A model generated the notes under the pieces. The model saw only the letters and a list, made by a program, of their open reading frames with translations. It did not search any database and was not told the origin of the DNA. A stretch of DNA of 64,000 bases, from positions 1 to 64,000 of the forward strand of contig JALGVJ010000010.1 of the NCBI GenBank assembly GCA_029838195.1, given 5' to 3'. The translations under genes were made by a program, and so were the position numbers. Below are positions 393 to 3,335 of the stretch, in pieces (the first letter of the stretch is position 1; each line of letters starts with the position of its first letter). Source of the stretch: Promethearchaeota archaeon. GTDB taxonomy: Archaea; Asgardarchaeota; Lokiarchaeia; Sigyniarchaeales; SOKP01.

Positions 393-3335
393 GTGAATTC
401 ATTAATTTTAAATACTAAAGAGATTAAGGAATTAATCAAATTTGGCAAGCATGCAGAGGCCGCTGAAAAATTATTTTCAATATTAGAGGAAACTAAAAAT
501 TATCAGAATAAAGATCTCTTATATGCCGCATTATCTCTCTTAAATTTAATCAGCGATAAATCACCATCTATTTCTTTACGAGCGGCTAAAACTGTTCAAT
601 ATTTTATTAATGACATTAATTCATGGATAAGATTAGTTAGCTTGGAAATATTGTATCAAATTTCTAAATATCGTCCAAATTTACTTATTGATCTGATAGA
701 CAAGATTAGAGCCCGCATGTATGATAGAGATGTTCCGGTTCGGCGATTAGCGGTAAAAATAATGGGATCTTTAATCTTATCATTACACATTGACATTAAT
801 GATTTACGAATTCTAATTGAAGAATATACGGAGAAATTATTAGACAATGATTGGAAAGTAAAATTACAAGCGATCAAGACCATTAAAACCATTTTAAATG
901 AAGATTATACGAAAATCCCTGATCTAGAACCTCTTTTATCCATCGTGATAATCAATCTAAGAGATGAAGATGAAGATGTGGCGAGAGCTTCTGCAGAATT
1001 GTTAAAATTAATTGGAACTTATTTCCTTTCTAAAGAAAAAATTTTGCACGTGCTTTTAAACTTGTTATATAATGAAGAAACAGAGGTTAAAGAACACGTT
1101 ATTAAGTTATTTGGGGAGATCGGGAAGGAAAAATCTTCTGAAATCATTCCTTTCATTCCAAAATTGATCAACTTATTAAAAGAGCCGGAATATTCGCTTC
1201 AAATGAGAGCCATAGAAGCCCTCGTGGATATTGGGAAAAATAATTTTGATCAAATATGGTCTAATTTGATTAATTCATTAGATTTGGGAGATCAAGAATT
1301 TCGAAATAATCTCATAAATACCTTGTATCACTTATGCGAAACTAATTTAGATAAGATACTTCCTCGCATATTTGAGGAAATAGAGAATCCCTCAGAAAAT
1401 ATTCGAAAATCCATTTCTCTCGTGTTAAAACGATTATTTGATGAGCATCCAACCGAAATCAATACCGAAATTGCGAAAATATTTTATAAATTAGAATCTA
1501 AATTTTGGAGGAAACGACAAGAAGCCATTCATTTACTTTTAAACTTGTTTTTCATTCTCAAGGATGAGAAATTGGCTATATGGATTTTGATCGAATTCAA
1601 TGAAGCCTTAAAAAAAGAAAAAGATTATGATGTAAAAAAAGAAATTATTAATTGTATGGAAAAAATTACTGCATCATTTAAAGATATCCCCCAAAAATTA
1701 GAAGAAATTTATACTCAAATTGCTCTCTTAAAAGAAGGAATAAAGAGATTTCAGCGAATGCCCGCTCAATTTCGAGAACGCTTGAGTTTTTACGTAAATA
1801 AATTCAAGTTTAATAAGACGGAAATTCAGTTGAAGAGAATGCATGATCATATCATGAAAAGAATCAAGGTGTTCGATGAAAACGTGAAAAAATTTGAGTA
1901 TAAATATCTGAGCATTGATTTATTTGAGGAATGGGAAGAAACCAGAGTACAAATTATTGAAGAATTGAATATCATTAGGGAATTTATTTCTGACATGTGT
2001 GAAGTAAAAAAAAAAGAATTCCTTACTGAATTACAAGATAAAATCGCTTTCTTGGAAAAAAAAATTGAAGTGCTTAGAGTAAAATTCGACCATGTAAAGA
2101 ATTATAAATTTCGATTAAATTTATACATGGCATTAACGGAAACAGAATTGGAAAATGATTTGGAAGAAAAATTAACCTTGATGATGGATATTAGAAAGCA
2201 TTTATTCAATCTCGATGGAGATATCAGAGAATTATTGATTCAAAATCTAGAATTTAGTGATATCTTTAATGATTTAATAAAAAAATGGATTGAGCTCAAG
2301 ATTGAAATTCAAAAATATCTTTCCGAGTTTGAACGACAAATAAAAACCATGAAACATAAAGTGCTCACCCATTATCTTAAATTAAAAAATAAACCCCATG
2401 TGTTAGGGGAAAATAAAATTAATGGCTTGGATAAAGAATTAACTCTCCAAATACTTCAAGGCCATTTTCAATCAGTGATTTCTCAAGCAATTAATGAAGT
2501 TAAAAAGTTTAATGAAAACCATAAAGGTCTGAAAGTTAAATTGAATTTTTTAATAAAAAAGAGGGAATATGTTCAAGTAAAAAAATTGATTGAATTAAAT
2601 TCTACTCAAATTCAAAATTTCATTCAAGAAATAGATGCTAGAATTGATGAAATTATTGGAAAAGACGAGATTTTTGAAAAAAGCAACGGGTTTACCTTAT
2701 TCATTCGTCCTTATCTTATTCGATGGAATAAATGGAAGGATAAATTATTATCCAAATCGAAAAAATTCATGGAAATGAGCATGGAAAGATTATATTTGAG
2801 TCAAATCAAGTATTATTTAAACATTATCAATCCTATCGACCTAGAATTTTTATCCTCTTATATAGGATTACAACCAGGCCATATGAAAAAATTAATTATC
2901 GCTTTCATCAATAATGGCAAATTGAATGCCAAAATTATAAAAAATTCTCTTTATTCCCAAGAAATCAATAATGATTTTCTTGAATCGAAACCCATCACGC
3001 TACAAAAACAATTAAAAAAAGTGGGAGATGAGATACAAGGCTACTTTAAATTAATGAATCCTTCCTCTCTCGTTTATCAAGATATACAAGTCATGCTTCA
3101 AATTCCTTCAATTTTAAAACTTAAAAAAGAAATCAGCTATCCTAAAATCTTTTATTTGAATGATCTAAAACAAGGAAAGAGTTTTGAATTTAATTATGTT
3201 TTTCTCATGGATAAAGAATCGAAAAAAACTCTTACTACCATGGACTCACAAGAAATCATTTTAAATATTTATTACAAGGATCCTTTTAATATTAGTCATG
3301 AAAAATCCGAAAAAATCTCTATCCTCATTCCGTGA
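393..3335 (+). CDS. Large HEAT/ARM-repeat protein with coiled-coil, PCI-like winged helix and C-terminal Ig-like (adaptin appendage-like) domain
   Basis: GTG start. Repeated HEAT motifs (DRDVPVRRLAV, DNDWKVKLQAI, DEDEDVARASA). PCI-like segment IDLEFLSSYIGL..MKKLIIAFINNGKLNAKI. C-terminal FKLMNPSSLVYQDIQVMLQIPSILKL beta-sandwich pattern. Confidence 0.75.
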   Translation: MNSLILNTKEIKELIKFGKHAEAAEKLFSILEETKNYQNKDLLYAALSLLNLISDKSPSISLRAAKTVQYFINDINSWIRLVSLEILYQISKYRPNLLIDLIDKIRARMYDRDVPVRRLAVKIMGSLILSLHIDINDLRILIEEYTEKLLDNDWKVKLQAIKTIKTILNEDYTKIPDLEPLLSIVIINLRDEDEDVARASAELLKLIGTYFLSKEKILHVLLNLLYNEETEVKEHVIKLFGEIGKEKSSEIIPFIPKLINLLKEPEYSLQMRAIEALVDIGKNNFDQIWSNLINSLDLGDQEFRNNLINTLYHLCETNLDKILPRIFEEIENPSENIRKSISLVLKRLFDEHPTEINTEIAKIFYKLESKFWRKRQEAIHLLLNLFFILKDEKLAIWILIEFNEALKKEKDYDVKKEIINCMEKITASFKDIPQKLEEIYTQIALLKEGIKRFQRMPAQFRERLSFYVNKFKFNKTEIQLKRMHDHIMKRIKVFDENVKKFEYKYLSIDLFEEWEETRVQIIEELNIIREFISDMCEVKKKEFLTELQDKIAFLEKKIEVLRVKFDHVKNYKFRLNLYMALTETELENDLEEKLTLMMDIRKHLFNLDGDIRELLIQNLEFSDIFNDLIKKWIELKIEIQKYLSEFERQIKTMKHKVLTHYLKLKNKPHVLGENKINGLDKELTLQILQGHFQSVISQAINEVKKFNENHKGLKVKLNFLIKKREYVQVKKLIELNSTQIQNFIQEIDARIDEIIGKDEIFEKSNGFTLFIRPYLIRWNKWKDKLLSKSKKFMEMSMERLYLSQIKYYLNIINPIDLEFLSSYIGLQPGHMKKLIIAFINNGKLNAKIIKNSLYSQEINNDFLESKPITLQKQLKKVGDEIQGYFKLMNPSSLVYQDIQVMLQIPSILKLKKEISYPKIFYLNDLKQGKSFEFNYVFLMDKESKKTLTTMDSQEIILNIYYKDPFNISHEKSEKISILIP

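Follow-up and report, generated by a model that had tools for sequence, protein, structure and literature searches.

The gene at positions 393-3335 on the forward strand of contig JALGVJ010000010.1 (Promethearchaeota archaeon, assembly GCA_029838195.1), within the 64,000-nucleotide stretch analyzed here (positions 1 to 64,000; hereafter the window), encodes a protein, P0001, that carries four conserved modules in one chain: a HEAT-repeat solenoid, a bundle of long helices, a winged helix and an immunoglobulin (Ig)-like beta-sandwich. We favor, at a probability of roughly 0.55, the reading that P0001 is a lineage-restricted multidomain interaction scaffold of Asgard archaea, found in one order of the Lokiarchaeia with distant copies in Sigynarchaeota, and that it was built by shuffling Asgard domains. 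We infer by analogy that it acts like an adaptor, with a trunk and an ear, without membership in the AP/COPI or PCI complexes. Because the defining features of both the adaptin and the PCI families fail, P0001 was filed in neither; the family adds a variant to the Asgard multidomain "eukaryotic-signature" scaffolds already known.

Four modules in one conserved chain

The open reading frame (ORF) is unbroken (980 residues, with a GTG start), and the G+C content around the gene is 26-29%. As the window opens at base 1 of the contig, nothing upstream of P0001 can be read in its own genome. A full-length AlphaFold2 model was built from 48 aligned relatives (mean pLDDT 81.8), and residues 760-980 were also modeled separately, yielding the same two C-terminal domains (pLDDT 82.7). 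The resulting layout is as follows.

393-3335, forward strand: whole gene P0001 (HEAT / long-helix / winged-helix / Ig-sandwich), stop codon included; from the ORF list and translation
393-1682, forward strand: HEAT-repeat solenoid, residues 1-430, ~11 helical hairpins; from Pfam and the AlphaFold2 model
1683-2687, forward strand: middle bundle of long amphipathic helices, residues 431-765; model helices of 14-67 residues, pLDDT mostly 75-90
2688-2840, forward strand: long helix leading into the winged helix, residues 766-811, in a DDRGK1-like arrangement; from both models
2841-2957, forward strand: winged helix of putative PCI/DDRGK/UFL1 type, residues 817-855, with a conserved N-P-I motif (813-815) just upstream
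2997-3323, forward strand: C-terminal Ig-like beta-sandwich, GAE/adaptin-C2-like by fold, residues 869-977, without a platform subdomain; from the models

In the full-length model, residues 2-428 form 23 short helices (~11 HEAT hairpins), residues 432-811 form nine long helices of which the longest has 67 residues, and residues 869-977 form an eight-strand beta-sandwich that is joined to the winged helix by a short linker of low confidence. Pfam matches above threshold were confined to residues 100-290 and consisted of HEAT (50.7 bits; cut-off 23.5), HEAT_2 (47.7 bits; cut-off 27.7) and a marginal Cnd1 (27.2 bits, just over the cut-off of 26.4). A first-pass annotation, made from the sequence alone, had described about 10 HEAT repeats at about 520-1680 and a four-part architecture in a single archaeal protein; the two models and the Pfam HEAT matches agree with both statements, and the peptide strings that it quoted are present in the translation. 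Its long helical or coiled region was also modeled, as the nine long helices, but the period of their hydrophobic residues lies nearer to 3.6 than to 3.5, and they look like a packed amphipathic bundle more than a classical coiled coil. For this middle region, a profile search of the PDB returned nothing above noise level (keratin at 0.021, SbcD_C and the like), per-member Pfam scans gave nothing meaningful, and an ESM Atlas feature search gave no usable match.

Conservation was about equal in all four regions across the family (mean column identity 71% over 52 relatives), and we thus regard P0001 as one protein selected along its whole length rather than a chance ORF. A word-indexed search found more than 120 relatives of 945-1023 residues that are 50-68% identical to P0001 and align over 96-100% of its length (most over 99-100%), which supports the called GTG start. 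All source-named relatives from this search came from metagenome-assembled genomes of Asgard archaea (Promethearchaeota), where they are named "HEAT repeat domain-containing protein" or "hypothetical". A HMMER search run exhaustively over 1.84 billion cluster representatives extended the full-length relatives down to 15-33% identity, and one of those with 15-18% identity is labeled Candidatus Sigynarchaeota; beyond the Lokiarchaeia, at least one more Asgard class has very divergent copies.

When 300 sampled genomes of the phylum were searched with the P0001 family profile, every one of the 68 from the window's family had a full-length match, as did 6 of the 7 from a sister family in the same Lokiarchaeial order, and outside these two families there were only partial matches, to the HEAT part. 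With the C-terminal 221 residues as query, matches lay only inside a P0001-type protein, once per genome. With 74 of 75 sampled genomes of the order having a full-length match, one copy each, the gene is therefore near-universal and single-copy in the order.

The C-terminal winged helix and Ig-like sandwich

The first-pass annotation had placed a PCI winged helix at about 2790-2960. A winged helix is indeed modeled there, at 2841-2957, and PCI-like matches to it recur across the family, but P0001 itself remains below the PF01399 (PCI) cut-off of 22 bits (14.8, 17.6 and 19.0 bits; the sub-threshold match lies at residues 794-849), the flanking PCI elements are absent, and weak PF01399 matches were found in 14 of 14 control genomes. 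PF01399 was the top Pfam match (E<=1) for 50 of the 52 close relatives, with 4.3e-6 as the lowest E, and Paf67, the eIF3L family, matched 34 of the 52. Of 10 distant relatives, six had PF01399 among their matches, top-ranked in four, and others matched DDRGK or E3_UFM1_ligase. The leading sequences in searches of the PDB with family profiles were eIF3E (E 0.009), eIF3L (0.019) and CSN2 (0.2), and structural matches to CSN3 (86 residues), PCID2 (78 residues) and a proteasome-lid subunit took in the preceding long helix as well. These results point weakly but consistently to a PCI-type assignment. As to the flanks, in both models no TPR-like repeat stands directly before the winged helix, the place being taken by the 46-residue helix 766-811 and then further long helices, and no C-terminal bundle helix follows it, there being instead the short linker and the sandwich. 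About 385 residues separate the end of the HEAT solenoid from the winged helix, and the winged-helix segment has a net charge of +8.

For the sandwich, the top Foldseek match was a bacterial FixG-related Ig domain, followed in order by mu2, the alpha-adaptin ear, GGA GAE domains, the gamma ear, BBSome subunits and TRAP, and GAE and appendage domains headed both VIA lists. In the fold comparison the scores were 11.9 for the BBS9 GAE domain (2.3 A, 100 residues), 11.4 for TRAP-beta, 11.0 for the alpha-adaptin ear, 10.8 for GGA2 GAE, 10.6 for the Mfa5 pilin, 10.5 for gamma-COP, about 10.3 for mu2 and about 10 for the MG domains of alpha-2-macroglobulin. BBS9 itself differs from P0001 in having a beta-propeller rather than a HEAT trunk, and its GAE domain is 12% identical with no sequence-level signal. 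The adaptin-ear-like character that the first-pass annotation gave to the sandwich is supported at the level of fold only; at the level of sequence there were only sub-threshold Alpha_adaptinC2 matches in four relatives, the best (5.6e-4) in one distant relative. The sandwich profile found nothing significant by sequence in the PDB (beta-arrestin, E 0.28). The same annotation had set CARDB against appendage domains as the deciding comparison, and both matched, the CARDB clusters of the ESM Atlas equally well (TM 0.42-0.54). On the models, the sandwich is best described as GAE/adaptin-C2-like by fold, and its homology to adaptin ears is at most putative.

A closer parallel to this pair of domains lies within the Asgard archaea. 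The top row of the ESM Atlas search was a Promethearchaeota cluster annotated DDRGK / E3 UFM1 ligase / PCI, and contig 54 of the window's own genome (G000) encodes a 786-residue protein, P0272 (L052:1285-3645, reverse strand), composed of a Zn ribbon, an array of winged helices (PCI at 65.5 bits, E3_UFM1_ligase, DDRGK), an Ig region with a weak GAE_BBS1 match and a VPS28 C-terminal domain. Asgard ESCRT-I-like fusions of this type were described by Liu et al. (10.1101/2020.10.19.343400) and Makarova et al. (PMC10936438), so PCI/UFL1-type winged helices adjoining adaptin-like Ig domains were already known, and such cassettes have been interpreted as modules for interaction and cargo recognition (PMC10936438). 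Aligned by hhalign against 108 members of this Vps28-fusion family, the winged helix of P0001 reached 86.9% (P 4e-6) and its Ig domain 72.8% (P 3e-5); against a single sequence the value was 63.5%. As far as sequence profiles can tell, the winged-helix-plus-Ig cassette of P0001 thus probably shares ancestry with that of the Asgard Zn-ribbon / UFL1-like / Ig / Vps28-C proteins.

The two kinds of protein occur in the same organisms and are alike in that a PCI/UFL1-type winged helix is directly followed by an adaptin/GAE-like Ig domain. They differ in that P0001 has one winged helix instead of an array, a PCI score of 15-19 rather than 65.5 bits, and 430 residues of HEAT trunk plus a 380-residue helical bundle in place of the Zn ribbon and Vps28-C; neither PF03997 nor a Zn ribbon was matched in P0001 by Pfam at E<=1, and P0272 has both. 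Because the cassette is probably homologous to that of known proteins, the pairing of winged helix and Ig domain is not new, and the combination, which the first-pass annotation did not know from eukaryotes, is in this respect not without precedent. In published surveys of Asgard archaea, the only adaptin-type domains are ones that stand alone or are joined to components of ESCRT-I (PMC10307638; PMC10936438), with AP-type domains "not fused to each other" according to Eme et al. (PMC10307638). We found no description of the attachment of the cassette to a HEAT trunk, and this fusion appears undescribed.

Elsewhere in the genome, the sole Pfam match of a 1349-residue protein on contig 19 (L054:7-4056, forward strand) is PCI at the cut-off (22.7 bits, residues 1191-1251), and the genome scan showed a second weak PCI-like stretch in this protein.

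The HEAT trunk and competing readings

The likeness of the trunk to those of adaptor large subunits, also proposed in the first-pass annotation, did not prove specific. In searches of the PDB with the family profile, the best natural match was AP-3 delta (3.4e-17), over one ~310-residue stretch (residues 8-316 against 70-389), and the next was AP-1/2 beta (about 1e-15), with SF3B1, PP2A-A, CAND1 and Integrator-4 trailing the AP matches by 3-6 orders of magnitude. Fold searches with the trunk, Foldseek among them, gave adaptins no lead: Integrator, CAND1, karyopherins, PP2A-A and designed ARM proteins ranked as high or higher. Adaptin_N (PF01602) had no match to P0001 at E<=1 in Pfam, and many relatives carry precomputed Adaptin_N matches. 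The Adaptin_N cut-off was passed, however, by unrelated HEAT proteins of the same genome, namely a PBS-lyase-type protein of 448 residues (L056:1862-3208, forward strand) and a protein of 1116 residues (L055:935-4285, forward strand), both of which are also matched by Cnd1, PDS5 and Arm. An Adaptin_N label therefore has no diagnostic value on an archaeal HEAT protein, and because fold searches showed no preference and Adaptin_N is non-specific, we treated the trunk as a generic HEAT solenoid. The motif W-L-F-G-E-I-G at residues 238-244, invariant or nearly so in the family, was considered as the adaptin WIIGEY signature and rejected, since profile alignments to adaptins do not superpose the two motifs and A-L-G-E-I-G is the ordinary HEAT/PBS-lyase repeat consensus. 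Frames of about 1120 residues like the larger of the two unrelated HEAT proteins recur in many genomes of the window's family.

In the interaction scaffold that we favor, the HEAT trunk would hold one or more partner proteins, the helical bundle would be a rigid spacer between partners, the winged helix would dock onto other winged-helix proteins (or, less likely, nucleic acid), and the terminal sandwich would bind short peptide motifs, as the ears of adaptins and GGAs do. Candidate pathways are protein sorting or ESCRT, ubiquitin-like modification, and translation. Several observations weigh against this reading. The mechanism rests on analogy, and the middle third of the protein is without a known relative in the PDB profile, Pfam and ESM Atlas feature searches. 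The fold matches of the sandwich lie within 1-2 Z of those to TRAP-beta, MG domains and pilins, as well as CARDB, and those of the winged helix within 1-2 Z of the unrelated NiaR, Z-alpha and ScpB. The hhalign values of 73-87% are moderate and were obtained against a target family of low diversity. Finally, the gene neighborhoods hold SelD, aIF2-gamma and metabolic genes and indicate no sorting machinery. Asgard archaea are being searched for forerunners of the eukaryotic trafficking machinery, and the P0001 family offers a solenoid trunk and an ear-type sandwich joined in a single protein that is well conserved and almost universal in a cultivable order of archaea; it is a concrete and testable candidate for an archaeal adaptor-like hub. 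In this genome Adaptin_N and PF01399 respond non-specifically to proteins with HEAT repeats or winged helices, and lists of eukaryotic signature proteins compiled from such matches therefore call for caution.

Were P0001 instead a true proto-adaptin, its trunk and ear would jointly go back to the AP/COPI large-subunit ancestor and it would serve as a membrane coat or cargo adaptor with Arf-like GTPases. The AP-3 delta and AP-1/2 beta matches of the family profile, the precomputed Adaptin_N matches of many relatives, the Alpha_adaptinC2 match of the one distant relative, and an ear best matched by the alpha-adaptin, GGA, gamma-COP and BBS9 GAE domains are all in its favor, and a protein that fuses trunk and ear would close the gap left by unfused AP-type domains, yet we consider it unlikely. 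P0001 passes no Pfam threshold for Adaptin_N (or for Alpha_adaptinC2), Adaptin_N is non-specific in this genome, and the trunk fold searches favor or tie generic ARM/HEAT proteins. The trunk has 430 residues as opposed to about 600 in AP/COPI-F large subunits, and their flexible, disordered hinge is replaced at residues 432-855 by 380 residues of structured helices and the winged helix. Unlike the alpha, beta and gamma-COP ears, that of P0001 has no platform subdomain, the chain ending 3 residues past the last sandwich strand in both models, although gamma-adaptin and GGA ears are also without one. Candidates for the other adaptor subunits were scarce: in the 96.6%-complete genome, sigma (PF01217) had no match, but the control also matched nowhere, and mu-homology (PF00928, Adap_comp_sub) gave a single match of 22.3 bits (cut-off 31.6) at G000:C62:36367-36981 (reverse strand), in a 706-residue frame. 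The longin or small-GTPase neighbors that the first-pass annotation had proposed as a check were not seen in five orthologous loci, the NOG1 GTPase found 3-10 kb upstream in two Loki loci being a ribosome-biogenesis factor. Moreover, the family occurs in Lokiarchaeia and Sigynarchaeota and not in the Heimdall lineages that have been placed nearest to eukaryotes (PMC10307638). About as unlikely is a single-chain "trunk plus ear" adaptor that selects cargo with Arf-like GTPases or ESCRT-I-like partners in Lokiarchaeia and Sigynarchaeota. If true, this would make P0001 the first Asgard protein with an adaptin-like trunk and an adaptin-like ear in one polypeptide, and either a surviving relative of the AP/COPI large-subunit ancestor or a case in which archaea arrived at the adaptor principle on their own.

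The genomic context holds a weak lead toward translation and no support for a coat. In the sister family, a genuine aIF2-gamma gene lies within 0.04-2 kb of the P0001 gene in 6 of 6 sampled gene-bearing genomes and on 3 metagenomic contigs, arranged in three ways (divergent; in tandem about 50-60 bp apart; and 2 kb downstream, after SelD); together with eIF3E and eIF3L/Paf67 as the nearest sequence relatives of the winged helix and with about 70-110 extra N-terminal residues on the aIF2-gamma of these lineages, this could suggest an eIF3-like or eIF2-associated scaffold for translation initiation that works with aIF2. We think such a role improbable. The linkage is absent from the window's own family, whose aIF2-gamma gene is on another contig in the window's genome and does not occur within 10 kb in three other loci, and because the sister-family genomes are close kin, their counts are not independent. 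The N-terminal extension was rejected as a marker of co-occurrence, as long frames are also present in three Asgard families without P0001 (f16, f24 and f27). The eIF3 similarities are marginal (E 0.009-0.2), and the surroundings of the gene showed neither an MPN partner nor another eIF3-like gene. The missing flanks also set P0001 apart from the PCI subunits of eIF3 (e and l), the COP9 signalosome (CSN) and the proteasome lid, whose defining features include TPR-like repeats and the C-terminal bundle helix. We consider membership in a lid- or CSN-like assembly tied to the ubiquitin/UFM1-like systems of Asgard archaea very improbable, even though PCI, DDRGK and E3_UFM1_ligase matches recur across the family, the CSN3, PCID2 and lid-subunit structures match beyond the winged helix into the preceding helix, and possible PCI-positive partners are present in the genome (P0272, the 1349-residue protein of contig 19 and a 375-residue frame on contig 3); P0001 is under the PF01399 cut-off in a search that gives weak matches in every control genome, and no proteasome or ubiquitin genes adjoin it in the loci viewed. 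We give least credence of all to the view that P0001 is a HAWK/condensin-Cnd1-like HEAT protein associated with chromatin or DNA, in which the winged helix would bind DNA or an SMC/kleisin partner. The marginal Cnd1 match, one relative named PDS5 by NCBI and another locus with a PDS5 match would fit it, as would the ScpB, MarR-type and Z-alpha winged helices among the fold matches, the charge of the winged-helix segment, and the location of Sigynarchaeota-type copies between genes for a DUF87 (HerA-like) ATPase and DHH/DHHA1; but Cnd1 and PDS5 matches are as non-specific as Adaptin_N on the HEAT proteins of this genome, no SMC or kleisin neighbors were seen, and the best winged-helix matches are of protein-binding types (DDRGK1 and PCI).

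Gene neighborhoods

Downstream of P0001, the window holds a SelD-type gene of the AIR-synthase family, a CinA-like gene, a PIG-L deacetylase, a Zn-ribbon protein and an aldehyde:ferredoxin oxidoreductase. The SelD-like gene (window:3974-4996, forward strand) is directly downstream of the HEAT gene, and this adjacency is kept in both families of the order (loci of the window, L003/L004, L006, L039-L041 and L043). No ESCRT or proteasome genes were seen adjoining P0001 orthologues in the loci viewed. The Sigynarchaeota-type copies (L050:3081-9636 and L051:5172-12140) lie in a different conserved block from the Loki copies, with a gene of 522-588 residues upstream (DUF87 in the P0165 loci, no Pfam match in L051). 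Downstream come two small ORFs and a DHH/DHHA1 gene, and also a GH38 mannosidase in cases where a scan of the product was possible.

The aIF2-gamma proteins of the order (L006:12700-14265; L007:6404-7861, reverse strand; L008:818-2317; G000:C42:125369-126598, reverse strand) pass the NCBIfam equivalog cut-off narrowly, at 515-572 bits versus 514.5; in the sister family, those beside the P0001 gene have N-terminal extensions of 70-107 residues. In five genomes of the window's family (G019, G030, G071, G113 and G117), the aIF2-gamma match starts at model position 15-19 in a frame of 396-418 residues; the N-termini may lie in another frame or behind an intron, or may have been lost to misassembly.

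Two further proteins of the window have similarly placed counterparts in L003 and L005: a 245-residue protein whose only match is a C-terminal Zn ribbon (window:7204-7941, reverse strand) and a 630-residue TPR protein (window:15348-17240, forward strand).

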